Origin: Candidatus Borrarchaeum weybense
GTDB taxonomy: Archaea > Asgardarchaeota > Sifarchaeia > Borrarchaeales > Borrarchaeaceae
Reading direction: 5' to 3'
Assembly (NCBI GenBank): GCA_019057385.1
Contig: JAHQJS010000004.1
Span: 1,044,727-1,108,726 of the forward strand
DNA: 64,000 nucleotides
This document shows positions 17,598-37,533 of the stretch, in pieces (position 1 is the first letter of the stretch; each line of letters starts with the position of its first letter). The position numbers and the translations under genes were made by a program. Below the pieces are notes generated by a model. It did not search any database and had not been told where the DNA came from. It was given only the letters and a program-made list of their open reading frames with translations.

Positions 17598-18506
17598 CTA
17601 AGAAAATCTTAGACTTTGAAGAAGTCTTTCTGCAATTAGTTTCAATGATACGGCTGCAGGACTCTCTGGCGCATAGGTAACAATTGGTTCTGCTTGGCCA
17701 ATAGAATATGGTACATTCTTATCGAGTGGGATCTCTCCAAGCACCTCAACGTTATTCTTTCTGGCTATTTCGAGTATCTGGACTTTTGACGGTTCATGTA
17801 TATCCGATTTGTTGATAACAAGTCCAATCCCTAGTGGAAAATGTTGTGCAATATATGTGATCCTTTCGAAAGCTTTCATTGCAGAAGGTGTTGGTTCAGT
17901 TACGATGATGACATAATTCGCTCCCGTTATAGCGGCTATCACTGGGCAACCTGTCCCGGGCGCACCGTCAACTAAAAGAATATCTGCATTTACCTTTTGT
18001 GCCTCTTCTCTTCCCCGCTTTTTAATTTCTGTAACAATCTTGCCAGATCCAGTCTCACCGATAGCTATCTGTCCCGTAATTATTGGAAATCCGTCTGTAT
18101 TGTTCTGTGAACTGATAACTTTTCCCCCCCGTACTGCACGTATCTCTATTGCCTCTTCTGGACAAAGTATTGCACATTTTCCACAGCCTTCACAGAGATA
18201 TGGTATGATTATTGGTGGTTCTGCCAAATCTGGTTGCATTATTGCGTTTTCACTGCAAGATACAACGCATTGTCCACAATGGGTACATCTGTCAGCAAGG
18301 ATGAAAGCTTTTTCTGACACCTCAATTTCGTCTTCAACTCTTCCATCGTCCTTTGCGCTCAAGAGCAATGCTAAATTTGGTGCGTCGACGTCAGCGTCCA
18401 ACGCCACAAGGTTTAGATTCTTTTCGCGAAATAAAATGGCTAGTGCTGCAGCAACTGAAGTTTTTCCAACTCCGCCTTTTCCCGAGACTACCACAACTTC
18501 TTTCAT
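17598..18506 (-). CDS. MinD-family P-loop ATPase with inserted 2x[4Fe-4S] ferredoxin
   Basis: SGKGGVGKT, DADVDAPN, CTHCGQC/CEGCGKC, DGAPGTGCP. Confidence 0.92.
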   Translation of the reverse strand: MKEVVVVSGKGGVGKTSVAAALAILFREKNLNLVALDADVDAPNLALLLSAKDDGRVEDEIEVSEKAFILADRCTHCGQCVVSCSENAIMQPDLAEPPIIIPYLCEGCGKCAILCPEEAIEIRAVRGGKVISSQNNTDGFPIITGQIAIGETGSGKIVTEIKKRGREEAQKVNADILLVDGAPGTGCPVIAAITGANYVIIVTEPTPSAMKAFERITYIAQHFPLGIGLVINKSDIHEPSKVQILEIARKNNVEVLGEIPLDKNVPYSIGQAEPIVTYAPESPAAVSLKLIAERLLQSLRFS

Positions 18507-19477
18507 TTTAAAAGCAACTCCTGAGTTTTTTCTGCCAGTTGAATTAATATTTTCCCGCTTGTGGACTCTGGGTTATAATTCACTATGGGAATTCCTTTGA
18601 CATAGCTTTTAATCAGTTCATCATCGTATGGAATCCGTGCTAGCAACTCCACTGATTTTTTCTGGCATGTTGAATCAATTATTTCACTATCCGCAATATC
18701 AGATCGATTTAGTACTACTTTCGAATCAAGCATCATGACGTTCTTGGTCAGTTCGATTATTAGATCCAAATCGTGAGCCCCAAAGGGTGTTGGCTCTGTT
18801 ACAGCTAATACGAGATCAGCCCCTTGCAAAGCACGGATGACGTCGCAATGGGCACCTGGGGCAGTATCGATTACCACAATATCATAGTTTTTTCCATTTT
18901 CTTTGACTTTCTTAAACGCCCTTTCTCTTGCGGCATCTACTGCGATAGCAGATTCTGGTTCTCTCAATTTTAACTCGCCACTGACAATATCGACACCATT
19001 ATTTTGCCCTTCAGATGTATAACCGACAATCTTCTCCTTGTCTACTATTGCATCGGATGGGCACACTAATTGACATACTTCGCAACCTGTGCAAATTTCT
19101 GGGAACAACAGGGGTGGCTTATCGCCTACCTGCAATATAGCGTGAGCCCTACAAAATTCTGCACACTTCCCACAAAATGTGCAGTTTTCCAAAATAAATT
19201 CTGGAAGAAAACGTTTGATTACTTGCTCATTCTTTAATTCGGCACCCAAAAGAATGGCAACATTAGGACTGTCAACATCACAGTCGATGATTAAAACTCT
19301 TTTGCCCATATTTGCTAACTGGGCTGCAAGGTTAATGGCTACGACAGTTTTACCAGTGCCACCTTTGCCGCCAGTGCATGCCAGTATCGGTACGTCAACT
19401 GGTTTCCTATGGAAGATTTCTGATGGAAGAGATGTCATCTTTCTTAAACTCCTGCATTTTAATAATTCTCTTGTCAA
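18503..19477 (-). CDS. MinD-family P-loop ATPase with inserted 2x[4Fe-4S] ferredoxin (partner paralog)
   Basis: GGKGGTGKT, DCDVDSPN, CTFCGKC/CTGCEVC, DTAPGAHC, TEPTPFG. Confidence 0.92.
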   Translation of the reverse strand: MTRELLKCRSLRKMTSLPSEIFHRKPVDVPILACTGGKGGTGKTVVAINLAAQLANMGKRVLIIDCDVDSPNVAILLGAELKNEQVIKRFLPEFILENCTFCGKCAEFCRAHAILQVGDKPPLLFPEICTGCEVCQLVCPSDAIVDKEKIVGYTSEGQNNGVDIVSGELKLREPESAIAVDAARERAFKKVKENGKNYDIVVIDTAPGAHCDVIRALQGADLVLAVTEPTPFGAHDLDLIIELTKNVMMLDSKVVLNRSDIADSEIIDSTCQKKSVELLARIPYDDELIKSYVKGIPIVNYNPESTSGKILIQLAEKTQELLLK

Positions 19478-19492
19478 ATGTTTAAGAGTTAA

Positions 19493-19876
19493 TTATAAAA
19501 AACCAGCCTTTTTTGGTTTCGTTGGCTCTTCTAAGGACTTATATTTACCAGAAAGATAGCGATCAATTGCTTCTTGCACAGTTAAGTGTAGATCACATTG
19601 TATTATTTCAAACCCTAAGGAATTCAAGGCTGTAAAAGCACTTGGACCGAAATTTTCAGCAATGGCAACACTACACCCTAACTGGGCAAGAAACTGGGTG
19701 GATTGAATTCCAGCCCCACTACGTGCATTCCTCGCATTATTTTCATATAATTCAACGTTGATTACCTTTTTGTTATCATCCACTTCAACAACTGTCCACA
19801 TGAAGCACCGACCGAAGCGATCATCAACAGGTGAATCTAGTCCTTCAGGCAAGCTTGATGCTACGCCGATCTTCAT
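19493..19876 (-). CDS. NifB/NifX-family protein
   Basis: DRFGRCF, GAGIQSTQ, ENFGPSA. Confidence 0.9.
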   Translation of the reverse strand: MKIGVASSLPEGLDSPVDDRFGRCFMWTVVEVDDNKKVINVELYENNARNARSGAGIQSTQFLAQLGCSVAIAENFGPSAFTALNSLGFEIIQCDLHLTVQEAIDRYLSGKYKSLEEPTKPKKAGFL

Positions 19877-19916
19877 AAAATCTCCTATTTTTTTGATGTT
19901 ATTTACAAATTACCAA

Positions 19917-20399
19917 TTACCAATTTTGGCCGCCACCGCCGCGTCCACCGCCACCGCCGCGTCCACCGCCACCGCCGCGTCCACGTCCTGCACCTCTACC
20001 TGCGCCACCGCCGCGTCCACCAATTCCTGACTTAGCTCCCGCTGTTGGCCCTGAAGTGGAAGTTAATGCTCCTGTAAGATATTGATCAATTGCCGCCTTT
20101 ACTGTTGCGCCAAAAACACCTGTATATATCTGTATACCCATTTGTTGGAGAGCCGTAAAGGCATTTGGCCCCACGTTGCCTGTCAAAACTACAGTTGCGC
20201 CCGCGGTGACAACCAGCTGGGCTGCTTGAATACCTGCACCTGAAAAACTTTCTGCAGCCATATTCGGAACAACTTCGACATTCCCTGTATCCGAATCGTA
20301 AATTGTGAAAGCTGCACATCTCCCGAATCTGGGATCTATAATGACTTCTAACCCGCCTGGGGGTTGAGAACTTACTGCAATCTTCATTTTATACACCAT
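19917..20399 (-). CDS. NifB/NifX-family protein with RGG-rich C-terminal tail
   Basis: PRFGRCA, GAGIQAAQ, GNVGPNA; tail GGRGGGAGRGAGRGRGGGGGRGGGGGRGGGGQNW. Confidence 0.9.
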   Translation of the reverse strand: MVYKMKIAVSSQPPGGLEVIIDPRFGRCAAFTIYDSDTGNVEVVPNMAAESFSGAGIQAAQLVVTAGATVVLTGNVGPNAFTALQQMGIQIYTGVFGATVKAAIDQYLTGALTSTSGPTAGAKSGIGGRGGGAGRGAGRGRGGGGGRGGGGGRGGGGQNW

Positions 20400-20421
20400 A
20401 TTTCTACTGTTTTTTTAAAAA

Positions 20422-20439
20422 TTTTAGGCATCCCTAAAA
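20422..20439. promoter_or_regulatory. DtxR/MntR-type operator TTTTAGG-N4-CCTAAAA
   Basis: TTTTAGGCATCCCTAAAA ~23 nt upstream of the NifX-NifX-MinD-MinD operon. Confidence 0.7.
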
Positions 20440-20554
20440 ATTTTTTTGTGTGTCTAAGCACAACATTACAGTTTGAATATTTATTTGTCTTTCTACATAC
20501 AAATGTTAATATTAACTTTGATTCAACTTACAAAAAAACTCTATTTAAGTTTTG

Positions 20555-20905
20555 TTATGTTTCGGGTACTATTATAAGTTCTCTTCCTTCGGTTAACACT
20601 TGCGCAACCTTAGAACGGGCGCTTTGGAGCACTCTCCAGATGGTACCCCTTGAAACGCCCATCTGCTTACCTGCTTCCTCTTGCATCATTCCCTGTAGGT
20701 CCACAAGCCTCAAAACTTCCAGTTCTGCATATGTTAGAAAAATAGGCTCTTTTGAACTATGTTCTTCTATGGTGTCTTTAGGGATGGCTGGCACAAAGTT
20801 CTTGATAGGCGGAGTGAAGTTTATTTTTCTGGGTGTCATAGGTCGCCCTGGACCTGTTTTCCTCATTTTTCCTCGTCCGCGTCTCCATCTCGGCATAATA
20901 GTCAC
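20555..20905 (-). CDS. DUF134 (UPF0251) HTH protein
   Basis: GRPMTPRKI, ELEVLRLVDLQGMMQEEAGKQMGVSRGTIWRVLQSARSKVA. Confidence 0.92.
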   Translation of the reverse strand: MTIMPRWRRGRGKMRKTGPGRPMTPRKINFTPPIKNFVPAIPKDTIEEHSSKEPIFLTYAELEVLRLVDLQGMMQEEAGKQMGVSRGTIWRVLQSARSKVAQVLTEGRELIIVPET

Positions 20906-23133: not shown

Positions 23134-23381
23134 CTAAATCAAATTCCTCCAAATATATGGATAAAAAGCGTTGAAAAAGTGTACCCAAAAGCAAGTAAAA
23201 AAATATACCACTAAAACGAATTTCCTCAAGGCTATATTGAAACATGTTCTATCATGTTCCTTATTGTGCTCAAATGTAGTTAACAGATACTTTTAGTATT
23301 AATTTTTTTTGGTAAATTGGGCTTCACTAATTTAGTATGAATTTTTTAAAAAACAGTTTAAAAACAAAGGGTTTAGGTAGA

Positions 23382-23873
23382 TTAAATCTCTTTTTGTCGT
23401 TCTTTTCTTTCATAATGTTTTTCTGCCTTTTCTCTTATCAGTTGAACATATTCATTTGCAGTTATCAGGTTTGATAAATCAGACTCTAAGTTATTGGCTT
23501 TTATCTTAAGAATCCAACCCTCTTTATACGCCGATTTGTTAACAATTTCTGGAGACGCTTCAAGTTTTTCATTTATTGCGACTATAGCTCCCCCAACAGC
23601 TGGGATTATATCGAGCACTGTTTTTACTGATTCAAGTGATCCAATCTCTTCTCCAGGAATGACCTCATCGCCAACTTGTTTCTCAAGTTCGAGAAACAAA
23701 ATATCGCTCAAAATCGTTTGAAAATAATCAGTTGCACCTATGACAACTATTTCATCATCTTTAGATACCCACAAGTCATCTTTTGAGTAGAATAAATCCT
23801 TAGGAAATTTCAAAATGAATTTTTCGATAGTAACCTTGAATTTATCTTCTTCTTCAACTACATTGAAGATCAT
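23382..23873 (-). CDS. gcvH: Glycine cleavage H-like lipoyl carrier (no P/T/L genes in window)
   Basis: GATDYFQTILSDI, LESVKTV (lipoyl-Lys motif), PEIVNKSAYKEGWI. Confidence 0.88.
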   Translation of the reverse strand: MIFNVVEEEDKFKVTIEKFILKFPKDLFYSKDDLWVSKDDEIVVIGATDYFQTILSDILFLELEKQVGDEVIPGEEIGSLESVKTVLDIIPAVGGAIVAINEKLEASPEIVNKSAYKEGWILKIKANNLESDLSNLITANEYVQLIREKAEKHYERKERQKEI

Positions 23874-23886
23874 AATATTCCCAACC

Positions 23887-24333
23887 TTATTCGTCTTTTG
23901 GCCTTATGTCCAGCAAGATTTCATCCACTTTTTTAGCAGTTAATTCTGCAATTCTGCGAGCTAGTTTCATCCCGTTGTTTCCTAATTCAACTACATCTTC
24001 TGGATTCAACTTGATATCCATTTCTTTCATAACTTTTTTTACATCTATTACAGCTGAAGGTTTATCGCTGTATTTTTCAGTGCCAAGAGAAGAACACCGT
24101 TTTTCACACCCATCTAAGCAAATAGTAGGAAAGAATTTCGCAAAATTTTGTTCTCCTTCATCCCCTGCAAGAAATAACGGTAAGCACATTATTACTGTAC
24201 TTTCAGGTAACTCCTCGACAACAAGACGCGCTGCTATTCGTGTTACAGTCCCCTCTGGGATTGCTTCACCACTACAAGCGATAATCCCGACCTTTGTAGG
24301 CCTCATAGTTTCAAGAAAATCTGGCATAAGCAA
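23887..24333 (-). CDS. DGC-domain putative zinc-binding protein, type B
   Basis: KVGIIACSGE..EGT, CLPLFLAG, DGCEKRC. Confidence 0.85.
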   Translation of the reverse strand: MLMPDFLETMRPTKVGIIACSGEAIPEGTVTRIAARLVVEELPESTVIMCLPLFLAGDEGEQNFAKFFPTICLDGCEKRCSSLGTEKYSDKPSAVIDVKKVMKEMDIKLNPEDVVELGNNGMKLARRIAELTAKKVDEILLDIRPKDE

Positions 24334-24342
24334 ACTTCCTTA

Positions 24343-24750
24343 CTAATTACACTCAAGAAGTTTATCTACTTCTTCGGCAACCCTTTCTGCTACTTTTCGT
24401 GCAAGTTTCTTCCCATTTTCGTCTAAGAACGTTACTTGTTTTGTACGGAACTCTTTATTTTCTCTTAGTACGTCCATGACCATAACAGATGCGTCTGAGG
24501 TACGTCCGATAGATCGTTCAACATCTTTGAAAGCGCAAGCTTTCGCACATCCATCAATGGAAATCACAAAATTGTTTTTAGTGAGATCTAGAGCTTCTTT
24601 ATCCGCTATCTGAAGCAAAGGCAGACAAAAAGTTTTAGTTTTGTCAGTTCGTAGTTCATTAACAACGATATATGTTGCTTGCCTCGCTACCGTTCCGAAA
24701 GATTTTCCAATCCCGCTGCAGGGCAAAATAACCGCTTTTTTTAAAATCAT
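24343..24750 (-). CDS. DGC-domain putative zinc-binding protein, type A
   Basis: PCSGIGK..GTVAR, CLPLL, IDGCAKAC. Confidence 0.85.
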   Translation of the reverse strand: MILKKAVILPCSGIGKSFGTVARQATYIVVNELRTDKTKTFCLPLLQIADKEALDLTKNNFVISIDGCAKACAFKDVERSIGRTSDASVMVMDVLRENKEFRTKQVTFLDENGKKLARKVAERVAEEVDKLLECN

Positions 24751-24767
24751 TGTCTTTCAATCATCCT

Positions 24768-25154
24768 TTAAGCAGAGAGAATTAATTCCTTAAGTTCTTC
24801 ACGTTTCGGCACACGCCCCATTGAAACAACTTCACCATTGAATACAACTACAGGAGTAAGAAAAATTTCCTGTTCCTTAGCTAATTCAACATAGGGTGCG
24901 AGTTTTTCGTCAATGGTTTTGATATCACGTTGTTCGAACAATTTACGGTAGTCGAGATCAATTCCCATTTTCTCGGCAAATACTTCTGCTTCAACTATTT
25001 TTCCGTATTTTTCTGCTTCTTCAGAGCCAGCGTAAATTCGCTCGATTTCGATGTTCATACCCCGTTCTCTTTTTAACTGTTTTAGCATCCTATGAACTCT
25101 GTGGCAACGAATGCAAGGCGGGTATGGTCCAATTACTTCTACTTTAAGCACCAT
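24768..25154 (-). CDS. Small thioredoxin-fold protein with ~40-aa insertion
   Basis: PPCIRC, TPVVVFNGEVVSMGRVP. Confidence 0.8.
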   Translation of the reverse strand: MVLKVEVIGPYPPCIRCHRVHRMLKQLKRERGMNIEIERIYAGSEEAEKYGKIVEAEVFAEKMGIDLDYRKLFEQRDIKTIDEKLAPYVELAKEQEIFLTPVVVFNGEVVSMGRVPKREELKELILSA

Positions 25155-25156
25155 GT

Positions 25157-25459
25157 TTATTCTTCTCCTAGTACCTCTAATATAGCTGCTTTGAATTCTT
25201 CTTTATGCGGCACTTCACCTTCGGCTATAATCATATCTCCAACTACAATTGTGGGCGCAAGTTGTACGTCCCATTCTTCAGCTTCGGGAGTCAGACAGCT
25301 GATCCTGCGTATATTTACCTTATCTCCAAAATATTCATCTTTTATCTTCTTTGCTACTTTTGCTGCCCGATGGCAAACTGTGCAAGGCGGTTCAGTTTCG
25401 AAAATAATCACATCAATTGGTCCAGACATTATTTTTCCTCCATCATCGATTAGTCCCAT
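25157..25459 (-). CDS. Small thioredoxin-fold protein
   Basis: PPCTVC, APTIVVGD..AEGEVP; likely starts at the internal MSGP. Confidence 0.8.
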   Translation of the reverse strand: MGLIDDGGKIMSGPIDVIIFETEPPCTVCHRAAKVAKKIKDEYFGDKVNIRRISCLTPEAEEWDVQLAPTIVVGDMIIAEGEVPHKEEFKAAILEVLGEE

Positions 25460-25719
25460 TCTAGTTCGATATCAATCATTTTCTTCATCGTTTCTCTGCT
25501 AGGTGTTAATCCTATAATAAAATATGTTTCATTGATAACGATTGCTGGCGTAAGTTCGATGTGGTATTCTTCAAATTTTTCCTTTGCTGATGGTCCGATG
25601 TACTTTTCTACTTCTACTTTATCTCCGTATTCTTTTACAATCTCATCCACGAAATTCAAACAAATCTCACATTCTCCACAAACTGGCTCTCCAGAAAAAA
25701 ATTCTATGAGAACGGTCAT
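25450..25719 (-). CDS. Small thioredoxin-fold protein with CxxCxxC
   Basis: PVCGECEIC, TPAIVIN. Confidence 0.8.
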   Translation of the reverse strand: MTVLIEFFSGEPVCGECEICLNFVDEIVKEYGDKVEVEKYIGPSAKEKFEEYHIELTPAIVINETYFIIGLTPSRETMKKMIDIELEWD

Positions 25720-25736
25720 AGTACGCTACCTCCGCT

Positions 25737-26810
25737 TTAAATTGTTGGAGAAATGGTCGCTTTTTCCTCCTCGATATCTTTCATGGATCGCTTGTGAGCA
25801 ATGTAGGCACCTATAACGGCGACTGCCAGAAGTCCAAGAAGAATTATGTCATGATATTCACCGTAAAGATTGCCTCCGACTGCTGTACCGGCTGTAGTGA
25901 ACTCAAGCAATATTGGGAAGAATAGAACTCCAAGTAATATTGAGAAACCATAGACTCCTAGGGCATAGACTAATGTTCGCTTCCATTTGAGGACACGTAC
26001 GACTACCATAAGAGTAGCGATACTAATTGTTGGTGCTGCCAGCAGAAATACTAATGCTGCGCCTGGGCTCATCCCGAGTGCTAAAAATGTGGCCGCCAAT
26101 GGAATTTCAACGGGAGGAATGACAAACAAGGGGATTCCTATAAATGCCGCGAGCAGATAAGCGGTCAAACCTGTTGAGCCCATAGTACTTTCAATCCAGA
26201 CCGGTGGTAAAACTGTTCTTAATAATGCCGCTACGAACACACCTACCACAATGAGCCAGAGTATTTCTTTGATATAGTCCCAGGTGTACGTCATAGCCTT
26301 TTTCATTCTCGAGACAAAAGATACAACGACTTTTGGTTTCATGCGCCGTACTTTCCGTACTTTCTGTGCCTCTTCTTGCTCTTCCTTGCCAAAAACGAGG
26401 TCTACAACGATACCAACTGCTATTGCAATAAGAACTGCACCAATAATTCTTGCAATTCCTAAACCGACATTTAACAATCCCATGGTGAGTAGAACACCTA
26501 CTGGATTTATAGATGGACCTGCGATAAGGAACGTAACAGCGGGACCGATACCTGCACCTCTTCGTCTTATACCTGCAAATAATGGAAGTATCGCACAAGA
26601 ACATACGCCTAATAATGCACCAGCGGCGGTTGCTGTGACATAAGCATACCATCTTCCACTACCCAAGAGTCGTAAGAAGGTGTCCCTCGAAATAAATTCG
26701 CTAAAAATACCCGCCACAATGAACCCTACAGCTATACACCACCAGGCGTGGGAAAAATACTCGATTGCTATGATCCAAGTGCCAGTCAATATTTCTACAA
26801 TAGTTACCAT
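25737..26810 (-). CDS. DUF318/ArsP-family permease
   Basis: GVCSCAILPL, FLIAGPSINP, GAALVFLLAAP two-repeat architecture. Confidence 0.88.
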   Translation of the reverse strand: MVTIVEILTGTWIIAIEYFSHAWWCIAVGFIVAGIFSEFISRDTFLRLLGSGRWYAYVTATAAGALLGVCSCAILPLFAGIRRRGAGIGPAVTFLIAGPSINPVGVLLTMGLLNVGLGIARIIGAVLIAIAVGIVVDLVFGKEEQEEAQKVRKVRRMKPKVVVSFVSRMKKAMTYTWDYIKEILWLIVVGVFVAALLRTVLPPVWIESTMGSTGLTAYLLAAFIGIPLFVIPPVEIPLAATFLALGMSPGAALVFLLAAPTISIATLMVVVRVLKWKRTLVYALGVYGFSILLGVLFFPILLEFTTAGTAVGGNLYGEYHDIILLGLLAVAVIGAYIAHKRSMKDIEEEKATISPTI

Positions 26811-26837: not shown

Positions 26838-26863
26838 ATTATATCGTTATATGGCGATATAAT
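26838..26863. promoter_or_regulatory. Palindromic operator ATTATATCG-N8-CGATATAAT
   Basis: Perfect 9-8-9 inverted repeat between a TATA box (26873-26880, - strand) and the permease start. Confidence 0.75.
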
Positions 26864-26967
26864 CATATTTCAATTATAAGTCTTTTGGTGAAGGATGATC
26901 TCAAGAGCATTTCACAGTTGATAAAAAGCTGATGTGTAATTCATTCTCTCTCTAAATTTTTCCTTGC

Positions 26968-27271: not shown

Positions 27272-28135
27272 TTAAATGGGAATTCCAAGCCAAGCAAAGA
27301 CCCCAATCAATCGTAAGCCTACATAGATATATAGGATTGCAAGTAAAATTTTGAGTTGCTTTGGCTGTATCCTATGAGTCATTGAGGCACCTAATTGGGC
27401 AGTTATAACACTGGTAGATGCGAGGGTTAAAAATGCAATTAAGTTAAACCAGCCGAAGCTATACGGAGGATATGCTGCAGTCTGTTGTAGAGATCCTAAA
27501 ATGCCAAAAGATACGGCACCCACAGAAGAGCCTATCACCATAGTACTTATCGAAATAAGGACTGCCGTATGTATGGGAATCTCAAGTAACGTATTTAGTA
27601 CCGGCATATAAACAAGGCCACCTCCAATGCCCATGAAATGGGCGACACCTCCAGATCCGAGTCCCCCTGCAACATATTTTTCTTTGTTTAACTCTTTTAA
27701 TTCCGCAACCTGTTTTGGTCTAGCCGTCATAAATCGATATGCCCCTATTATACATGCAATTCCGAAGAGTATTTTTAAAAGATAACCTGGGGCGAAGTAT
27801 GCTCCAACACTTCCAATAACAGATCCAATCCCGACAGGGATTGCATAGTATAAGTAATGTTGTTTCGGAAATGAAATTTTTTTGCTATGTTTCCAAGCAC
27901 CACTAAATGCTGTCGGCACTACTACTGCCATATTGGTTCCAAATGCGATTTTTACTGCAATATCAAGAGGCACGCCCATAAGTTCATTAAAACAAAAGAT
28001 CATCACAGGCACCATAATAAAACAGCCACCAACTCCAAAAAAAGCGCTTACAAATCCAACTAAAGCGCCAGCGATAAGTAAAAACGCAATAATTTCCGGT
28101 GTAAAAATTGCTGCCATATTTCTCACCAAATTCAA
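27272..28135 (-). CDS. TauE/SafE (DUF81) sulfite exporter-family membrane protein
   Basis: FGVGGCFIMVP and MGIGGGLVYMP repeats, AFGTN; likely start ATG 28117. Confidence 0.9.
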   Translation of the reverse strand: MNLVRNMAAIFTPEIIAFLLIAGALVGFVSAFFGVGGCFIMVPVMIFCFNELMGVPLDIAVKIAFGTNMAVVVPTAFSGAWKHSKKISFPKQHYLYYAIPVGIGSVIGSVGAYFAPGYLLKILFGIACIIGAYRFMTARPKQVAELKELNKEKYVAGGLGSGGVAHFMGIGGGLVYMPVLNTLLEIPIHTAVLISISTMVIGSSVGAVSFGILGSLQQTAAYPPYSFGWFNLIAFLTLASTSVITAQLGASMTHRIQPKQLKILLAILYIYVGLRLIGVFAWLGIPI

Positions 28136-28260
28136 CTTTTAATCCGATGGGAAGATTTTCAAATAGATTAGTATATCGAAATATATGCATTTAACAGTTA
28201 CAATACTAATATAATTATATGTTTTCGGTTACAGATTGTAATATGTCTAACAATGGCAAA

Positions 28261-28824
28261 TCACTTTCGATGTTGTAACCTTTTTATCATCATTATCATG
28301 GATTTTGCTAGATATCTTGCACTTTTGATAGCGTGAATATCACTCGTGATCTCTCCTTTGCTAAATGCGAACCCTACGACACCTCTGTAGCTTACAGTGA
28401 TTTCATGTTTTAGAAAAAAAGAGTGGATAGCTTGAATTGCAGTTTCGTGTCCAAATCGTCTTCCTACAACAACACACCCGCCTACTTTTCCCTTTAGTTT
28501 TCTTCGCATGCACCACGTTCTATCTATAAATATTTTAGTCTGTGCTGTTACGTTGTTAAAATAGACGGGGGAAGCTATCAGAATCCCATCAGACGCAAGC
28601 AGTTTTGGATAGATTTCTTCCATTTCATCCTTAATAGCACATTTTCCATTTTCTACACATATCCAACAACTATCACACGGATGGATTTTAAATTCTGACA
28701 ATCTAATAAGATCAACATTGGCTCCAAGTTTTTCTGCAGTTTTTAAAAATACATCAACTAAGTATTCTGTATTTCCTTCCTTTCTTGGGCTTCCAGAAAT
28801 TGCTAGAATTTGCAAATATGTCAC
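28261..28824 (-). CDS. Iron-sulfur flavoprotein (flavodoxin-fold, Isf-like)
   Basis: SGSPRKEGNT, CDSCWICVENGKC, ASPVYF. Confidence 0.9.
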   Translation of the reverse strand: MTYLQILAISGSPRKEGNTEYLVDVFLKTAEKLGANVDLIRLSEFKIHPCDSCWICVENGKCAIKDEMEEIYPKLLASDGILIASPVYFNNVTAQTKIFIDRTWCMRRKLKGKVGGCVVVGRRFGHETAIQAIHSFFLKHEITVSYRGVVGFAFSKGEITSDIHAIKSARYLAKSMIMMIKRLQHRK

Positions 28825-28868
28825 CTAAAGCTTTCTAACATGTTAAGTAGTTGTAAGGCACAATATTG

Positions 28869-29633
28869 TTATTCCCTTTCTAAAGTTCTTTTTTGTGCTG
28901 CTAATGCTGCTACAAAAAGAAAGATAGTAAAACATAGAAGAATCACTACATTTATAGTCCAGTTATGTCCTACGTACCCCTCAAATGCACATCTATTTAA
29001 GTTGTGCGTATAGGTAAGTGGTGAAAGTGCTGCAATTATTTGTCCCCAGACCGGTAACTGTTCAAGAGGGATAAAAACCCCACTGATGAAGATGAGGGGC
29101 AAGCGTACTAAATTTGCTAAAGTCATAATTTCAGATGGCGTATCTGTAGGAAGGGCTGAGAATAGAGTACCAAGTGAAGCAAAACAAAATGCAGACAAAG
29201 GTATGCTGATTATCAAAGCATTTACGCTGATTATACTCGCTCCAAATAAAAGAACTCCGAGAATTATGGGAATTATTACTAAAAATGTGCCAAATAATAA
29301 GCCCGATAAAATATCGCCGATGAGGACCGAATGCAACGAAATCGGCGTAGAAATCAATCGTTCAAAGGTTTTCGTTCGTCGTTCCCATGGCGCTATGACC
29401 GGTGTCACAGAAGAGGATGTAAAGAATATCGTAAGAGAGATCATACCAGGAACAAGAGCTTGTGGCGGGAGGTTTCTTCCTACGGAAAATGCAAGAAATA
29501 GGAAAAATGGGAAAAGAATTCCAAAAATAAGAACCGGGCCTTTTAAATAATATATGCGTACATCCTTTTTAGCTATGGCGTATATCCCTTGCAATTCTCT
29601 TCTAAGATCAACTTTCATAAACTTTGCCTTCAT
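28869..29633 (-). CDS. ABC-2 exporter permease
   Basis: WERRTKTFERLISTP, FISGVFIP, LSPLTY. Confidence 0.9.
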   Translation of the reverse strand: MKAKFMKVDLRRELQGIYAIAKKDVRIYYLKGPVLIFGILFPFFLFLAFSVGRNLPPQALVPGMISLTIFFTSSSVTPVIAPWERRTKTFERLISTPISLHSVLIGDILSGLLFGTFLVIIPIILGVLLFGASIISVNALIISIPLSAFCFASLGTLFSALPTDTPSEIMTLANLVRLPLIFISGVFIPLEQLPVWGQIIAALSPLTYTHNLNRCAFEGYVGHNWTINVVILLCFTIFLFVAALAAQKRTLERE

Positions 29634-30568
29634 TTACGATTTGTTTTAGAGGTAAACCTAACAAAAACATCTTCCAATGAAGGTGCGAGCGTGTTTATCG
29701 TAATAAATTGGAGATTATTGCTAGTTGCATATGAATGGAGTTCACGAAGCACTGGGTCTATCTTGGAGGTATATAACCTGAATTTATCGCCAAGCTTTCT
29801 TACTTCGATAACACCCTTAATTGTTTCTAGATCTACTTTCATGTGATTAGAAGACTTGTTAAACGCTACTTCGATAGACTGGGCACTTTGGATTGCTTTC
29901 TTTAAGTGCTCTGGCTTATCTATAGCAATTATTTTTCCATGGTTTATTATAGCTACTCTGTCACACAATTGATTCGCTTCTTCGATGTTATGAGTCGTTA
30001 AAAAAACTGTTGTTCCCTTTTTATTAAACTCTCGAATCAAGTCTCTTATAATACGTGTACTATGAACATCTAGTCCAGATGTTGGCTCGTCAAGAAAAAG
30101 AATTTTAGGGTCGTTTAGCAGCGCCATAGCTAGTATTACACGGCGTTTTAGACCTTTAGACAATGCCTTAAATTTTGTGTGGATCTTCTCGGATAGCTCT
30201 AGTAATTCTAAGAAATTTTGCGCCTTCGATTCTCTTACAGCCTTAGGAACACCGTAGAGTTCTCCCATTAACATCAAATTGTCCCATGTCGAGAGTTCTA
30301 CATATCCATTTGAAATCTCTGGCACGATACCCATAAGTTCCTTAGCAGAAGCTGTTTCTTTTTGAATGTCATATCCGTAGATCCGCGCGGAGCCTTCACT
30401 GGGCTTTGAAATTCCGATCAGCATTTTCACAGTTGTCGTTTTTCCTGCGCCATTTGGTCCAAGAAATCCAAATATTTCTCCTTGTTCAACTTCAAAATTG
30501 ATATGATCCACCGCTAGGAGCTCGCCATAATATTTTGTAAATTGTTCTACTTCAATAGCTATACTCAA
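29630..30568 (-). CDS. ABC exporter ATP-binding subunit (DrrA-like)
   Basis: GPNGAGKTT, LSKG, LFLDEPTSGLD, TTHNIEEA. Confidence 0.93.
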   Translation of the reverse strand: MSIAIEVEQFTKYYGELLAVDHINFEVEQGEIFGFLGPNGAGKTTTVKMLIGISKPSEGSARIYGYDIQKETASAKELMGIVPEISNGYVELSTWDNLMLMGELYGVPKAVRESKAQNFLELLELSEKIHTKFKALSKGLKRRVILAMALLNDPKILFLDEPTSGLDVHSTRIIRDLIREFNKKGTTVFLTTHNIEEANQLCDRVAIINHGKIIAIDKPEHLKKAIQSAQSIEVAFNKSSNHMKVDLETIKGVIEVRKLGDKFRLYTSKIDPVLRELHSYATSNNLQFITINTLAPSLEDVFVRFTSKTNRK

Positions 30569-30852: not shown

Positions 30853-31482
30853 CTAAGGTGAATCGTTCCTAGGTTCTTTTTCTTCTTCTTTTTCTTCTTC
30901 TAAACAGAAATCAAGGCTTCCCTTATAAGCTGATGTAGCAGGGCATCCTAAACAATGCTCCAATTCATATTCTTCACATTCATAGCAGTTAAGATCACAG
31001 GGTGTCACACCATTGTGTTTCAATTTAAAGTTTACAGGGAAATATGGGGGGCTGACTAACCGACCAACACTGAGAACACTAACATTTCGAATACCATGAG
31101 GCGAACGAAGAATGCATGTACGGAGTATAGTTTCAAGTTGATGTTTATCCTCTGCAAATACCGTCGCAATGAGATCAAATTGCCCTAAGACTGTACTCAT
31201 TTGAATTATCCGCGGACATTCCTTGAACCGATTTATTAGTTCCCGGGTGCTTGCAGCACCATCTGTTTGAATCAGAAGATATACAACTTCTATATTAAGT
31301 TCCAAAATGTTGATTAGCACGCCCATTTTTATTATATTATTTTCACAAAGATTGACAAGCCTATTTCTGATTGCTACATGAGATAAATCAAGCTTCCTAC
31401 CTATCTCTGATAAAGTTGTGCGTGCATCCTTTCCAAGCCAGCCTATAATCTGTTGATCTATCCCGTCTATTTTTTGATCCAT
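30853..31482 (-). CDS. Lrp/AsnC-family regulator with C-terminal Cys cluster
   Basis: DARTTLSEIGRKL HTH, RAM domain, PCDLNCYECEEYELEHCLGCP. Confidence 0.88.
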   Translation of the reverse strand: MDQKIDGIDQQIIGWLGKDARTTLSEIGRKLDLSHVAIRNRLVNLCENNIIKMGVLINILELNIEVVYLLIQTDGAASTRELINRFKECPRIIQMSTVLGQFDLIATVFAEDKHQLETILRTCILRSPHGIRNVSVLSVGRLVSPPYFPVNFKLKHNGVTPCDLNCYECEEYELEHCLGCPATSAYKGSLDFCLEEEKEEEKEPRNDSP

Positions 31483-33357: not shown

Positions 33358-33380
33358 ATATATCGCTATGAAACGATAAA
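33358..33380. promoter_or_regulatory. Operator ATATATCG-N8-CGATAAA
   Basis: Same half-sites and spacing as 26838-26863; lies between TTTATAAA (33342-33349) and the ATG. Confidence 0.7.
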
Positions 33381-33393
33381 CAGGTGTCATAAA

Positions 33394-33813
33394 ATGGCAG
33401 GAAATGAACAGAAGGTAGGAATCATTTCGTGCACTGGCGTTTCGAGTGATAGTCAATGTTCAAAGGAAGGTTTGATTGCACGACAGGCAATGTACAAAGT
33501 ACTCGAAGATCTCAGACCTGACAAAACTTTACTTGTCTGTTTACCAGCTCTTGCAGCAGAAGTTGAAGAAGATGTGATTTTTGTGAGAGATTCTCCGACC
33601 ATAGTTATTGAGGGTTGCCCAGACGATTGCTCAACGAAAGTACTCGGACAATTTGAAACAAAGCAAATATACTCAACGTATTATGTCAAAGATTTCATAC
33701 AAGATATTGAATTCTCAGACTCACTAATCGACTTATCTCCCGAGGAAGACTCCGTTTCAGAACGTATAGCAGAAAAAATTGCGCAAGATGTTGATAAAAT
33801 CTTGCAAGGATGA
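33394..33813 (+). CDS. DGC-domain protein, type B (second pair)
   Basis: KVGIISCTG...EG, CLPALAA, EGCPDDC. Confidence 0.82.
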   Translation: MAGNEQKVGIISCTGVSSDSQCSKEGLIARQAMYKVLEDLRPDKTLLVCLPALAAEVEEDVIFVRDSPTIVIEGCPDDCSTKVLGQFETKQIYSTYYVKDFIQDIEFSDSLIDLSPEEDSVSERIAEKIAQDVDKILQG

Positions 33814-33825
33814 AGGTGACTTAAC

Positions 33826-34221
33826 ATGGGACACAAAATTATGGTAGCACCCTGCACAGGCATGGGAAAGGTATTGGCGACGGTAGCACGTGTTGGCGCG
33901 TTGTTGGCAACAGATGAGGGTAAAAGTGATGATCTTGAACTGATCTGTACACCATGCGTTGCAGCTGGACTTCAAAAAGAGATTGAGCGAATAAAGGGGG
34001 CAGATATGATTATAATCGACGGTTGCATAGACGAATGTTGTCGCAAAATCTTCGAAGAAAATGGTGCAAAAATCGTGGCAGACATAAAAGTATGGGAAGT
34101 TCTTCGCGAGAATAAGGACTTAAAACCAGAGTCAAGGGTAAAATTAGGTCCAAAGGGCATGGCGCTTGCAAAGAAAGTTGCAGAGAAAGTCAAAGAAGAA
34201 ATAATTAAGTTAAAAAGTTAA
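33826..34221 (+). CDS. DGC-domain protein, type A (second pair)
   Basis: PCTGMGK..ATVAR, CTPC, IDGCIDECC. Confidence 0.85.
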   Translation: MGHKIMVAPCTGMGKVLATVARVGALLATDEGKSDDLELICTPCVAAGLQKEIERIKGADMIIIDGCIDECCRKIFEENGAKIVADIKVWEVLRENKDLKPESRVKLGPKGMALAKKVAEKVKEEIIKLKS

Positions 34222-34638: not shown

Positions 34639-36996
34639 ATGACTGAGAAACCTGCCAGTTTGAAATTCAAGAAATTGAAGACCCCAACGTTAGAGATCGA
34701 TGGACTTGAATTTGCTATCGGTAAACTCCTCGAAGAAGAAGAATGGGCAGAACCAATGGGTCCTACGCCAAAGCCAGAGATAACTGATCTTCGCTCATGG
34801 GATCGAAGAATGTTAGAACGGTATAAGCCTTACTACATGCCTTTCTTAGACATTTGTCCTGCACTATGCACTTATGGCCCCTGTGACTTATCCGCAGGGA
34901 AGAAGGGTGCATGTGGGTTGGACATAAATGCTCAAGCAAGTCGAATAGTTCTTCTTGCGTGTTGTATGGGTGCATCTGCTCATGGAGCACATGGACGACA
35001 TTTACTAGATCACTTAATCGAAGAACACGGGAGTGATTATCCTATAGATCTAGGGGACAAAGTAGAGGTCGAAGCTCCACTGACTAGATTGATTGTAGGT
35101 ATAAAACCAAAAACACTTGGAGACTTAGTCGAAGCACAGAATTATGTTGAAGAACAAATAACGCATTGCGTAAGTTCTGCACACACTGGACAAGAAGGCG
35201 ATAATATCGATTACGAATCAAAGGCATTGCACGTTTCAATGTGTGATAGTTTAGCTATGGAAATTGCAGATTTAGCACAAATTGTTGGCTATGATTTACC
35301 AAAAGGCGAACCGGATGTCCCGCTCATCGAATTGGGTGCTGGGACAATTGATAGAACAAAGCCCGTAATCTTAGTAATCGGACACAATGTTGCTGCTGGA
35401 GCAGAAATCGTTGACTACCTACAAGCAAACGAAAATTACGATTTCGACGATATCGAACTCTGTGGAATCTGTTGTACAGCGCTTGATATTAGTCGTTATT
35501 CTGACAGGGCAAAAGTTGTAGGAGCAATGTATGAACAAATAAAGTTTATACGTTCTGGACTAGCTGATGTGATCATGGTCGATGAACAATGCGTACGGAC
35601 AGATATACTTGATGTAGCAAAAGAGGTAAAGACTCCTGTTTTAGCGACATTGAATAAAATGGCGTTAGGATTGAAAGATCGTACGCATGATTCCGTTGAT
35701 CAGATAGTAAGTGATCTTGTATCCTATAAGGAGCCAGGTGCGCTAATATTAGAACCAGAGGTTTCTGCTGAAGTAGCAGTGAAGTTAGCTATGGCCATCG
35801 CACCAGAGAGGAAGAAGTTCAAGGTGATTCCCGACATGGAAGAATTCAATTCAATGATCAACAAGTGTATAAACTGTGAGCTTTGTAAGCGGGCGTGTCC
35901 TTTGGATCTCGAAATTCCTGCGGCAATGACAGCAGCAAAGCAAGGCGACTTACAACCACTTGCTGAACTTCACAATGTTTGTATCGGGTGCGTAAGATGT
36001 GAGGGAATTTGTAGAGAAGGTATTGATATTTTAAGCGTAATTGAAAAAGCAGCTGAGAAATACGTTAAAGAAGAGAAGTACAAAGTACGTGCTGGACGAG
36101 GTCCAATAACTGACGTAGAAATCCGTGATGTCGGTGCTCCTATTGTATTAGGTGAAATCCCAGGCGTTGTAGCAATCGTTGGCTGCCCAAATTATCCTAA
36201 TGGTGCGAGCGAAATAGGGCTACTAGCTGAAGAATTCCTCAAAAGACGATATATTGTAGTTGCGAGCGGTTGTGGCGCTATGGACATCGGAAAATATAGA
36301 GATGAAGAAGGCCAAACGCTTTATGAAAAATATCCAGGATATTTTGATGCTGGTGGCCTTGTCAATGTTGGTTCATGTGTTAGCAACGCACATATTGATG
36401 GAGCAGTAATAAAAATTGCTAACATTTTCGCAAGGAGGCCTCTACGTGGAAACTATGAAGAAATTGCGGACTATTCCCTGAATCGTGTAGGAGCCGTAGG
36501 TGTTGCATGGGGAGCAATGAGCCAAAAAGCAGCCTCTATTGGAACGGGAGCGAACAGACTCGGCATTCCTGTGATTGTAGGGCCGCATGGTGGTAAATAC
36601 AGACGATTCTATATGGGTCGTTCAGAGAAAGATGAAGACTGGAATGTCTACAATGCCCGTACTGGTGAAGAAATGTATGTTGGACCCGCACCGGAACATC
36701 TTATTTATGGTGCAGAATCTATAGAAGAATGCATTGTTGCGACAGCAAAATTATGTTTGCGACCAAACGATACTACTAAGGGACGGGCAATAAAACTAAC
36801 GCATTACATCGACCTTCATCAGAAGTATATCGGAACATTCCCAGATGATGTCCACAAATTCGTAAGAACTGAAGCCGATATTCCAATTACAATGAAAGAT
36901 AAGGTAATAGAGCATCTGAAGGAAAAGGGCTGGGAACCGAGTGAAGTCCCTGATCCAACTTTGTTACCACGACTAATTAGAAAACCAAAGTCATGA
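34639..36996 (+). CDS. cdhA: CO dehydrogenase (ACDS) alpha subunit
   Basis: EPMGPTPKP, HGAHGRH, C-cluster ligand motifs (GHNV, ICCT, DEQC, GCPNY, SGCG, GSCVSN), two ferredoxin motifs. Confidence 0.97.
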   Translation: MTEKPASLKFKKLKTPTLEIDGLEFAIGKLLEEEEWAEPMGPTPKPEITDLRSWDRRMLERYKPYYMPFLDICPALCTYGPCDLSAGKKGACGLDINAQASRIVLLACCMGASAHGAHGRHLLDHLIEEHGSDYPIDLGDKVEVEAPLTRLIVGIKPKTLGDLVEAQNYVEEQITHCVSSAHTGQEGDNIDYESKALHVSMCDSLAMEIADLAQIVGYDLPKGEPDVPLIELGAGTIDRTKPVILVIGHNVAAGAEIVDYLQANENYDFDDIELCGICCTALDISRYSDRAKVVGAMYEQIKFIRSGLADVIMVDEQCVRTDILDVAKEVKTPVLATLNKMALGLKDRTHDSVDQIVSDLVSYKEPGALILEPEVSAEVAVKLAMAIAPERKKFKVIPDMEEFNSMINKCINCELCKRACPLDLEIPAAMTAAKQGDLQPLAELHNVCIGCVRCEGICREGIDILSVIEKAAEKYVKEEKYKVRAGRGPITDVEIRDVGAPIVLGEIPGVVAIVGCPNYPNGASEIGLLAEEFLKRRYIVVASGCGAMDIGKYRDEEGQTLYEKYPGYFDAGGLVNVGSCVSNAHIDGAVIKIANIFARRPLRGNYEEIADYSLNRVGAVGVAWGAMSQKAASIGTGANRLGIPVIVGPHGGKYRRFYMGRSEKDEDWNVYNARTGEEMYVGPAPEHLIYGAESIEECIVATAKLCLRPNDTTKGRAIKLTHYIDLHQKYIGTFPDDVHKFVRTEADIPITMKDKVIEHLKEKGWEPSEVPDPTLLPRLIRKPKS

Positions 36997-37005
36997 GGGT
37001 AAAAA

Positions 37006-37533
37006 ATGAGTATGCCATATAATATAGCTAATGTAAGAGGTCCACTTGAAGCAACAGTTATGAAATCACCAAAAACTGTTGTTAATATACTCAAACATGC
37101 AAAACGTCCTATACTGATCGTTGAAAGCAATGCGTTGAAGACAGTAGATGACAAATCGCCAATAGATTTTGCAATCGAGTTTGCTAAGAAGACAGAAATG
37201 CCAGTTGTAGCTACCGCACATACTATGAAAGCCTTTCTTGAAAGAGAATTCGAAGCAGCCACTGTTATGGGCGTAGCAGATATCACTAATCGGATTATTG
37301 ACCCTGAATGGAAAGGTCTAGACGGAAAGGGCGGTTATGACGTCATTTTTTATCTAGGCGGTCTCTATTACTTCCAAACACAAATTCTCTCTTCTATAAA
37401 ACACGGTGCTACGAGTTTAAAGTCGGTCAGCTTAGATCGATCATACGATCCTAATGCTACCTTTAGTTTTGGAAATTTAACAGTGGATGAATGGAGTGCA
37501 GCACTCGAAGAAATACTTACTCTATTGAAATAG
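37006..37533 (+). CDS. cdhB: ACDS epsilon subunit
   Basis: AKRPILIV, DPEWKGLDGKGGYD, PNATFSFGNL; directly after cdhA. Confidence 0.93.
   Translation: MSMPYNIANVRGPLEATVMKSPKTVVNILKHAKRPILIVESNALKTVDDKSPIDFAIEFAKKTEMPVVATAHTMKAFLEREFEAATVMGVADITNRIIDPEWKGLDGKGGYDVIFYLGGLYYFQTQILSSIKHGATSLKSVSLDRSYDPNATFSFGNLTVDEWSAALEEILTLLK

Follow-up and report, generated by a model that had tools for sequence, protein, structure and literature searches.

Why would a lipoyl carrier protein of the glycine cleavage type close an operon that opens with a membrane permease of the ArsP family? The question is raised by a stretch of 64,000 nucleotides from the Asgard archaeon Candidatus Borrarchaeum weybense (contig JAHQJS010000004.1, positions 1,044,727 to 1,108,726; the window, in what follows), in which a minus-strand run of seven open reading frames (ORFs) extends from position 26810 to 23382 with spacings of 17, -10, 2, 17, 9 and 13 bp. 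From the 5' end, Pfam assigns them to an ArsP_1/DUF318 permease, three Thioredoxin_3 proteins, two DGC proteins (DGC-A and DGC-B) and the H-protein homologue GcvH. A sequence-only reading of the window had described these co-oriented, close-set genes and proposed that they form a new system, a relay in which a lipoyl dithiol handles a metalloid or sulfur. The ORF check and the Pfam search recovered every gene and family, and the motifs that it had listed are all present (CSC in the permease, CGECEIC, CTVC and CIRC in the thioredoxins, ESVK in GcvH). Comparison of these sequences with those of other genomes makes us lean, if only slightly, towards the following answer: the operon would be the Promethearchaeota variant of a lipoyl-dithiol/cysteine relay of arsenic islands, coupled here to an exporter of the ArsP family.

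The GcvH/DGC core and its arsenic neighbourhood

The seven genes very probably work as a functional unit. They recur in identical order in two NCBI assemblies of Promethearchaeota and in one contig from the Joint Genome Institute (JGI), with GcvH identities of 79-86% and partly syntenic flanks; conservation among such close relatives speaks for stability, and for little beyond that. The core of the operon is found much further away. At E <= 0.001, an exhaustive HMMER search with DGC-B returned 292 representatives; when one genome per species was scanned with B-type sequences, at least 549 relatives came up, and we surveyed the best 80 of these at least 549 loci at the species level. They belong to Bathyarchaeia, Nitrososphaeria, Chloroflexota, Acidobacteriota, Aminicenantes and Desulfobacterota. 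In 72 of them a DGC gene has GcvH on its own strand no more than 300 bp away; of the remaining eight, five end at a contig edge at that very place. Two or more DGC genes are present in 79. The order is GcvH, DGC-A, DGC-B in bacteria and ferredoxin, DGC-A, DGC-B, a third DGC and GcvH in Bathyarchaeia. The window, where GcvH stands directly beside DGC-A and DGC-B on one strand, matches this core, and its DGC-A and DGC-B are each closest to the respective A or B type of the other phyla. Since the seven-gene order is the same in three related assemblies and the core recurs in other phyla, the arrangement is not a product of chance.

Natural fusions tell a similar story. DGC genes occur in 41 of 151 sampled genomes of the window's phylum, and 17 of 30 Asgard loci carry a DGC::GcvH fusion; genes for a ferredoxin and for a protein resembling an HdrA fragment come before the fusion gene, and two further DGC genes after it. 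Elsewhere DGC is fused to DGC (P0017, P0102, P0114) or to Thioredoxin_3 (P0020, P0056, L050), so that fusions of three kinds tie DGC proteins to each other, to GcvH and to thioredoxins of this family.

The link with arsenic comes from the genes around the core. The neighbours of the 80 loci were grouped by single-linkage clustering, clusters joined by fusion proteins were split again, and representatives were checked with Pfam and NCBIfam. NCBIfam cut-offs (given in brackets) are exceeded by ACR3 with 333 bits (282.8), ArsM with 351 (263), ArsD with 108 (90) and the MTH895/ArsE type of Thioredoxin_3 with 99 (62). Further families are ArsR/SmtB (which also reaches its cut-off), an ArsA-family ATPase, an ArsC-like protein of the low-molecular-weight protein tyrosine phosphatase (LMW-PTP) type (below its cut-off), CcdA with a membrane thioredoxin, AhpD-like and OsmC-like proteins, a radical SAM/SPASM enzyme and a dihydrolipoyl dehydrogenase. 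An ars-type gene is present in 42 of the 48 loci that span at least 12 kb, and in 34 of these 48 ACR3, ArsC, ArsM, ArsD or ArsA lies within 8 kb. A multi-megabase genome has few ars genes, and by our reckoning a random gene would be found that close to one just a few per cent of the time; the association between module and ars genes is strong. ArsR or ACR3 also often adjoins the Asgard copies. We conclude that the module, whose fixed core is a lipoyl GcvH paralog with a DGC-A/DGC-B pair, is widespread and occurs mainly in arsenic-resistance islands of anaerobes. Of the cargoes proposed from the sequence alone, arsenic is backed by these neighbourhood statistics, while sulfur and selenium gain no specific support, and we consider it fairly probable that the operon deals with arsenic or antimony.

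The rest of the genome is in keeping with this. ArsM (354.6 bits, cut-off 263) and an ArsC-like gene are encoded outside the window, as is an ACR3-like/ArsR pair, and because of these genes the cell would be able to handle arsenic and to make methylarsenite, a compound that belongs to the known substrate class of ArsP. Our literature searches turned up nothing on DGC (PF08859/COG4273) proteins, the papers listed under that name being concerned with diguanylate cyclases, and nothing on GcvH in ars operons; a paper on the Asgard selenoproteome does not mention the operon genes. The GcvH/DGC module is undescribed in the papers that could be searched, and to call it a new system is fair in that respect.

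The commonest bacterial companion of the module is an OsmC-like gene, present in 49 of the 80 loci and immediately downstream in 44. The OsmC-fold protein (L022-L101, directly after DGC-B, e.g. L049:8744-9196) is highly conserved over its approximately 150 residues and has two invariant cysteines (NTC...SYEC) placed 21 residues apart, a spacing that differs from that of the peroxidatic and resolving cysteines usual in OsmC/Ohr. It is absent from the genome of the window, where the best OsmC-like match (E 9e-5) lies outside the operon. In the variant found in the window, three Thioredoxin_3 proteins, an ArsP-family exporter and an apparent AsnC-type switch take the place of the OsmC-like protein, the ferredoxin/HdrA-like fragment and ArsR.

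Lipoyl proteins in a genome without glycine cleavage

The assembly (4.18 Mb in 8 contigs, 100% complete, with its nearest proteins in metagenome-assembled genomes of Promethearchaeota) has no match to the P-protein (PF02347) or to the T-protein (PF01571), families that were detected in 10 and 11, respectively, of 14 control genomes. The absence of GcvP and GcvT, first noticed for the window, is borne out and extends to the whole genome. The word orphan, which had been applied to the operon GcvH, suits it as far as its P and T partners are missing, and does not suit it as to number, for it is one of eight paralogs. Because P- and T-protein are lacking, none of the eight can serve glycine cleavage. 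The genome has four genes for LplA-like ligases and two for E2 acyltransferases, one of the latter (2-oxoacid_dh, 277.8 bits) being followed directly by a ligase gene (C7:198624-200108). With these four ligases, and with the lipoyl lysine K84 kept throughout its clade, lipoylation of the operon GcvH is possible. A search of the genome for a canonical LipA gave a best match of 27.7 bits against a cut-off of 310.

We placed the operon protein among 99 H-proteins in a tree that, besides the eight paralogs, takes in close orthologues, members of the module, fused forms and one canonical GcvH; it comes from a quick search and has that single verified canonical anchor. The DGC-linked GcvHs, the window's among them, form one clade of 90 rows with a value of 99 in the Shimodaira-Hasegawa approximate likelihood ratio test (SH-aLRT), and K84 and E81, three residues before it, are 100% conserved in it. 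The canonical protein (P0015, from a gcvT-glyA-gcvH-gcvPA-gcvPB operon) and six of the genome's paralogs, including the Hdr-linked H2 and H5, fall outside. The phylogeny proposed as a check on the earlier reading sets the window GcvH apart from a canonical H-protein, and the genome holds more than this one copy. Neither of these outcomes, nor the conservation of GcvH with DGC across phyla, goes against that reading, which is partly supported. A word-sharing search among longer homologues found no fused forms of the window GcvH.

The settings of the other paralogs are informative about lipoate in this lineage. One lies inside an hdrA-gcvH-hdrC-hdrB cluster, whose hdrA encodes 1017 residues with an MvhD fusion; another is 3' of an hdrA-mvhD-mvhG-mvhA...hdrC-hdrB series; another precedes a pyridine-nucleotide disulfide oxidoreductase, with hdrC/hdrB nearby; two are found near FAD-oxidase/CCG pairs, and one is right behind an ArsR gene. 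To judge from these gene orders, Hdr complexes that depend on lipoyl proteins may exist in this Asgard archaeon, in which no context of sHdr sulfur oxidation is seen, and the GcvH-like proteins of the lineage look like general dithiol shuttles. Paralog H8 joins the branch of the window GcvH, on a long branch of its own, and has KSNK instead of E-x-x-K. Its gene directly follows that of an ArsR/SmtB protein (C7:820518-821408, L141), with a TnpB/Cas12f-like gene just downstream. On another contig, a SepSecS gene (410 bits; C6:679040-680374, L019:5040-6374) indicates that the organism encodes a selenocysteine pathway.

A possible relay, its weak points and its rivals

How could such a relay work? 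The alignments show three universal cysteines in DGC-A (Cys11, Cys68 and Cys72) and a further one, Cys42, kept in archaeal forms only, whereas DGC-B has four that are invariant (C20, C50, C76 and C80). In the AlphaFold model of DGC-B, with a predicted local distance difference test (pLDDT) of 94, a four-stranded parallel alpha/beta fold is seen in which the invariant cysteines follow strands 1, 2 and 3. A profile search of the PDB found no solved structure related to DGC by sequence (best E 0.9). An LMW-PTP/ArsC-like fold was rejected for DGC: the Foldseek rows for Wzb/LMW-PTP have TM scores of about 0.45 at E values of about 0.01-0.05, and the CX5R loop is lacking. The complex of GcvH with DGC-A and DGC-B that had been proposed was predicted as three chains with GcvH as the scored partner. 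It reached a score of 0.35 (runs 0.35, 0.52 and 0.13) against 0.00 for the best of three controls, with a contact agreement between runs of at least 68% and a partner pLDDT of at least 82. In calibration 58 of 80 solved complexes came up to the mark, and so did 2 of 110 mismatched pairs; those that did so with a score of 0.60 or less were seven of the 80 solved complexes and both mismatches; these counts apply only roughly to a three-chain prediction made with its own alignments. The outcome is a weak pass, which lends weak support to the modelled complex.

In the working that we propose, DGC-A and DGC-B would pair up as a heteromer, with their conserved cysteines (four from B, three to four from A) along an edge of a sheet of flavodoxin/DsrE type. 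The arm of GcvH, a swinging dihydrolipoyl group, would dock on that site and exchange with it, either reducing equivalents or, by hand-over, a thiol-bound trivalent (methyl)arsenical; the direction of transfer, like the arsenic substrate, is something that we infer. We think it appreciably likelier that the arm carries electrons than that it carries the metalloid. The three CxxC-bearing Thioredoxin_3 proteins would couple the relay to the cellular disulfide pool, the ArsP-family permease with its CSC motif would expel thiol-reactive species, and a Cys-rich AsnC-type regulator acting on the palindrome TATATCG-N8-CGATATA would probably switch the operon together with a second pair of DGC genes.

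A bolder version, which we regard as doubtful, makes DGC-A/B and lipoylated GcvH a metalloid-handling machine with protein-bound dihydrolipoate as its working thiol. It would act as a swinging-arm chaperone that takes up As(III) or methylarsenite and passes it by way of the DGC cysteines to an exporter, or as the reductant of a DGC-based reductase of pentavalent (methyl)arsenicals. Arsenite and trivalent organoarsenicals are toxic largely through clamping the dihydrolipoate dithiol on 2-oxoacid dehydrogenases, and a private lipoyl carrier next to arsenic pumps, reductases and methylases in at least six phyla suggests that the target has been turned into a tool. If such a machine existed, lipoate would for the first time have a part in detoxifying the element by which it is classically poisoned, and the DGC family would gain its first function. 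The module provides the first testable context for this orphan family (PF08859) and is a candidate component of anaerobic arsenic cycling in sediments and soils; the parts being small and soluble, the idea is directly testable.

Several observations weigh against an arsenic relay at this locus. Its arsenic link comes solely through its DGC and GcvH partners: ArsR, ACR3, ArsC and ArsM are found neither in the operon nor in its flanks, the canonical ars genes are absent from the 64-kb window, and the ACR3-like/ArsR pair of the genome lies about 185 kb off on the same contig. The ArsR/SmtB family senses much besides arsenic. The operon is also devoid of the usual companions of the module (the OsmC-like protein, the ferredoxin with the HdrA-like fragment, and Lpd) and of AhpD. 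The 80 loci are those of the closest DGC-B relatives, and so describe one orthologous group and not all DGC proteins. The earlier expectation that GcvH, DGC and DUF318 are conserved together held across phyla for the first two, whereas the permease proved loosely linked, being near the module in just 10 of the 80 loci and having 20-35% identity to that of the window. The window gene is the sole match for its family in the genome, and its vicinal cysteines (CSC) in a membrane helix align with those of other module-linked permeases. It falls short of all NCBIfam equivalog cut-offs, the CSC motif is common to the SO_0444 and SaoE exporters (Haft 2022 preprint 10.1101/2022.07.06.499078), and its sequence does not seem to reveal its substrate. 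Nor does structure help much. Foldseek found no match to the DGC fold in the PDB at E <= 0.001, the weak rows being SIS domains, low-molecular-weight phosphatases and flavodoxins, and the VIA fold search returned only common alpha/beta arrangements of flavodoxin/DsrE-like type. Its best match for DGC-B is an uncharacterised protein (3pu6_A, Z 9.1, root mean square deviation 3.0 over 118 residues), from which we draw no function. The weak pass of the predicted complex belongs on this side of the balance as well.

Could the relay lack any special tie to arsenic and serve antioxidant defence or disulfide repair in general? An Fe-S or Zn site might then be present in the DGC pair, which would reduce the disulfide of lipoyl-GcvH, and the dihydrolipoyl arm would in turn reduce thiol peroxidases or thioredoxins; the permease would be unrelated and co-regulated, and the ars neighbours would reflect thiol and oxidative stress caused by arsenite. 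We find this rather unlikely. The OsmC-like companion with two conserved cysteines speaks for such a relay, although its second cysteine is off the usual resolving position. AhpD/CMD-like proteins in 10 loci, a dihydrolipoyl dehydrogenase (504 bits, cut-off 408.8) in six, and a ferredoxin that is upstream of the module in eight loci, mostly of Bathyarchaeia, and precedes it in Asgard loci also argue for it, as does the placement of other GcvH paralogs of the genome in Hdr-like redox clusters. Lipoylated proteins are moreover known as reductants in the defence against reactive oxygen species (PMC10332631), and GcvH-L, a paralog outside the glycine cleavage system, promotes oxidative-stress resistance in Staphylococcus aureus (PMC12440151). 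Yet the window operon has none of OsmC, AhpD and Lpd, and the neighbours that recur across phyla are ACR3, ArsC, ArsM, ArsD and ArsA, not catalase, peroxiredoxin or regulators of the OxyR/PerR type.

Other substrates seem to us less probable again. Efflux of a soft metal (Cu, Zn, Cd or Hg) by an exporter like SO_0444 or SaoE, with the thioredoxins, DGC proteins and lipoyl arm as thiol chaperones in the way proposed for the SAO locus, is an improbable explanation. The permease does find its best NCBIfam matches in the Cu/Zn exporter SO_0444 (170.7 bits) and then in SaoE (133.7 bits), but these are far under the equivalog cut-offs of 300 and 325. The SAO locus also combines SaoT (thioredoxin-like), SaoE (ArsP family) and SaoD (DsrE-like, with Cys) (Haft 2022), yet no further SAO component was seen here; and while the flanks have metal-related genes, such as MgtE-like and NifX/MinD-like clusters, families for copper, zinc or mercury resistance are absent from the 30 commonest neighbour clusters of the 80 loci, where ars genes dominate. 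Slightly less credible still is a relay for persulfide sulfur or selenium on the model of LbpA and sHdr, in which the lipoyl arm would carry sulfane sulfur or selenium, DGC would pass it on, and TauE or the permease would export the product. Sulfur oxidation by sHdr cannot do without the GcvH homologue LbpA (PMC6067878), the DGC-B fold is flavodoxin/DsrE-like with a small alpha/beta protein as best match, a TauE gene lies upstream of the operon, and selenium could be suspected from SepSecS and from weak matches of the thioredoxins to selenoprotein-related families. But hdr, dsrE, tusA and rhodanese genes are missing from the operon and from the frequent neighbours, with no CCG/HdrB or HdrA gene within or beside the operon in the manner of sHdr-LbpA, the Hdr-linked GcvH paralogs lie outside the DGC-linked clade, TauE is near only 9 of the 80 loci, and the seven genes have no in-frame TGA or other selenoprotein feature. 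That the protein is an ordinary glycine-cleavage H-protein, standing by chance behind unrelated genes, is very hard to believe. It passes the NF002270 subfamily model (125.7 bits, cut-off 117) and just misses the equivalog TIGR00527 (109.2 bits, cut-off 115.85), and public records label its orthologues 'glycine cleavage system protein H'; but the genome without P and T, the gap of 13 bp to DGC-B, the DGC adjacency in distant loci, the DGC::GcvH fusions and the separate clade all speak against it.

The arsenic relay that we favour has to be compared with systems already described. Known ars operons and islands are made up of ArsR, ACR3/ArsB, ArsC, ArsD/ArsA, ArsM and ArsP and carry accessory Thioredoxin_3 proteins ('redox-active disulfide protein 2', MTH895/ArsE), thioredoxin and CcdA (Castillo and Saier 2010, PMC2963123); in what that paper says on ArsP and Thioredoxin_3, neither a lipoyl carrier nor DGC is mentioned. 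The window operon resembles them in pairing an ArsP-family permease with Thioredoxin_3 proteins, and in other phyla the GcvH/DGC core sits among ACR3, ArsC, ArsM, ArsD/A, ArsR, Thioredoxin_3 and CcdA; it differs from them in having no ArsR, ACR3 or ArsC, three Thioredoxin_3 genes in tandem and an apparent AsnC-type regulator. With sHdr-LbpA (Cao et al. 2018, PMC6067878; Tanabe et al. 2023, PMC10332631) it has in common a GcvH homologue that bears a lipoyl lysine outside glycine cleavage, that works with cysteine- and Fe-S-rich proteins and that is matched by several dedicated LplA-like ligases, here those of the window's genome. Its operon partners, in contrast, are DGC proteins and thioredoxins with no HdrA/B/C, in a context of arsenic resistance and not of sulfur oxidation.

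Lipoyl carriers also act as dithiol reductants of defence, and not of metabolism, in thiol peroxidase relays, which run from Lpd through a lipoyl protein to OsmC/Ohr or AhpD/AhpC, and GcvH-L of S. aureus is likewise linked to stress (PMC12440151). Bacterial versions of the module are similar in carrying OsmC-like and AhpD-like proteins and sometimes Lpd, the OsmC-like one with its unusual second-cysteine position; the window operon has none of the three, and the relays have no counterpart of DGC. The SAO locus (saoTECXLBPAD), found in anaerobes and proposed to handle a thiophilic metal or organometal, likewise has a thioredoxin-like protein, an ArsP-family exporter with CSC and a DsrE-like protein with invariant cysteines (Haft 2022). 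It lacks a lipoyl carrier, while the window operon lacks the ABC importer, MerB-like lyase and selenocysteine of SAO, and its permease and thioredoxins are far under the SaoE and SaoT cut-offs. A last parallel is ArsD, a small three-cysteine protein that binds As(III) and, by thiol exchange, hands it on to the efflux machinery. ArsD genes are found among the neighbours of the module, and the same logic of hand-off to ArsA could apply; by this analogy a lipoyl dithiol arm would serve as carrier and a secondary permease as pump, and the proteins are unrelated in sequence and fold.

Further features of the locus, regulation and flanking genes

Table 1. Coordinates of the features discussed (positions of the window, unless a genome contig is named).
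Feature	Position	Strand	Remarks
T-rich stretch (T5 and T6 runs)	23330..23381	-	directly past the GcvH stop codon; read from the sequence
GcvH paralog of the DGC-linked clade	23382..23873	-	163 aa, lipoyl lysine K84 in ESVK, no cysteine; PF01597 106.8 bits (cut-off 22.2); last operon gene
DGC-B protein	23887..24333	-	148 aa, CSGE...CLPL...DGCxxxC; PF08859 53.8 bits (cut-off 27)
DGC-A protein	24343..24750	-	135 aa, PCSGIGK...DGCxxxC; PF08859 52.4 bits (cut-off 27)
Thioredoxin_3 protein C	24768..25154	-	128 aa, CIRC; PF13192 49.4 bits in two stretches
Thioredoxin_3 protein B	25157..25459	-	CTVC; PF13192 27.2 bits (cut-off 24.8)
Thioredoxin_3 protein A	25450..25719	-	89 aa, CGECEIC; PF13192 44.2 bits (cut-off 24.8)
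ArsP_1/DUF318-family permease	25737..26810	-	357 aa, CSC motif GVCSCAILPLFA; PF03773 189.9 bits (cut-off 32.3); first operon gene
Perfect palindrome TATATCG-N8-CGATATA, operator-like	26840..26861		between a TATA-like box (~26867-26880) and the permease start codon
Lrp/AsnC-type regulator	30853..31482	-	Cys-rich tail PC-x3-C-x2-C-x7-CLGCP(A/S)T; Pfam HTH_AsnC-type and AsnC_trans_reg
Second operator-like palindrome copy	33359..33380		one half imperfect; 14 bp 5' of the second DGC pair
Second DGC pair	33394..34221	+	139 aa, B-like, and 131 aa, A/third-type-like; PF08859 44.8 and 49.3 bits
Hdr-associated GcvH locus (L017)	C6:368876-374161		genome contig
Hdr-associated GcvH locus (L019)	C6:681820-689056		genome contig
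Hdr-associated GcvH locus (L016)	C5:414414-419247		genome contig

The three thioredoxins all have a CxxC motif and are nearest to the MJ0307 and MTH895/ArsE families of NCBIfam, below the cut-offs. Against TIGR00412 (MTH895/ArsE, cut-off 62) proteins A, B and C score 30.7, 21.6 and 37.5 bits, and A has 46.9 bits with TIGR00411, also under its cut-off. Protein B likely starts at the ATG at 25429, behind a GGAGG, which would give it about 90 residues as in its relatives; the orthologue in L013 has 89. In protein C an insert of about 45 residues separates the CxxC half from the C-terminal half. As for the DGC family, the bacterial B-type proteins (L026-L101, e.g. L049:7980-8747) have an extra conserved C-terminal tail of 90-100 residues that starts with C-x-C-G-S-GIP and matches no family in Pfam; in a few (L050, P0020, P0056) a Thioredoxin_3 domain stands in its place. 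The T-rich stretch behind GcvH is likely a transcription end of archaeal type.

The palindrome in front of the permease is a candidate operator. Its pattern is found five times in the window, where 0.22 matches would be expected, and the genome as a whole has a single instance of the strict 20-mer. In L013 and L015 the site is kept at the same position 5' of the permease gene. The second copy precedes a further pair of DGC genes, which with the operon pair makes up all the DGC genes of the genome. This second pair is upstream of, and co-oriented with, cdhA (34639-36996, 785 aa, Prismane and Fer4 domains) and cdhB (37006-37533), as assigned by Pfam, and DGC proteins may be linked with CO dehydrogenase. 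In the JGI contig DGC-DGC is again followed by a large gene, with a partial product of 505 residues that ends at the contig edge; in L013, cdhA is divergent from the permease operon and adjoins it.

Likely the reader of the palindrome is the candidate sensor encoded at 30853-31482, an AsnC-type protein whose assignment to this role comes from its sequence and neighbours. Homologues with the same invariant tail were found at L030:4504-5094, L060:8755-9366, L067:33-467 and L013:293-904, and such tail-bearing proteins of Bathyarchaeia and of L013 have Thioredoxin_3-ArsP or ACR3 genes and the DGC/GcvH module beside them. They may be archaeal sensors of metalloids or of redox state in place of ArsR.

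On the same strand as the operon, the region 27272-30568 holds a TauE/SafE-type exporter, 460 bp upstream of it, an Isf-like FMN reductase that has a Cys cluster, and a pair of ABC-2 exporter genes. Pairs of this ABC-2 kind again adjoin the permease operon in L015 and in the JGI contig, and lie near the module in some other phyla. On the other side, the region 17598-20905 consists of a DUF134 regulator gene and, behind it, two NifX-like genes and two for MinD/ferredoxin ATPases, a block that is also downstream of the operon in L013 and L015.

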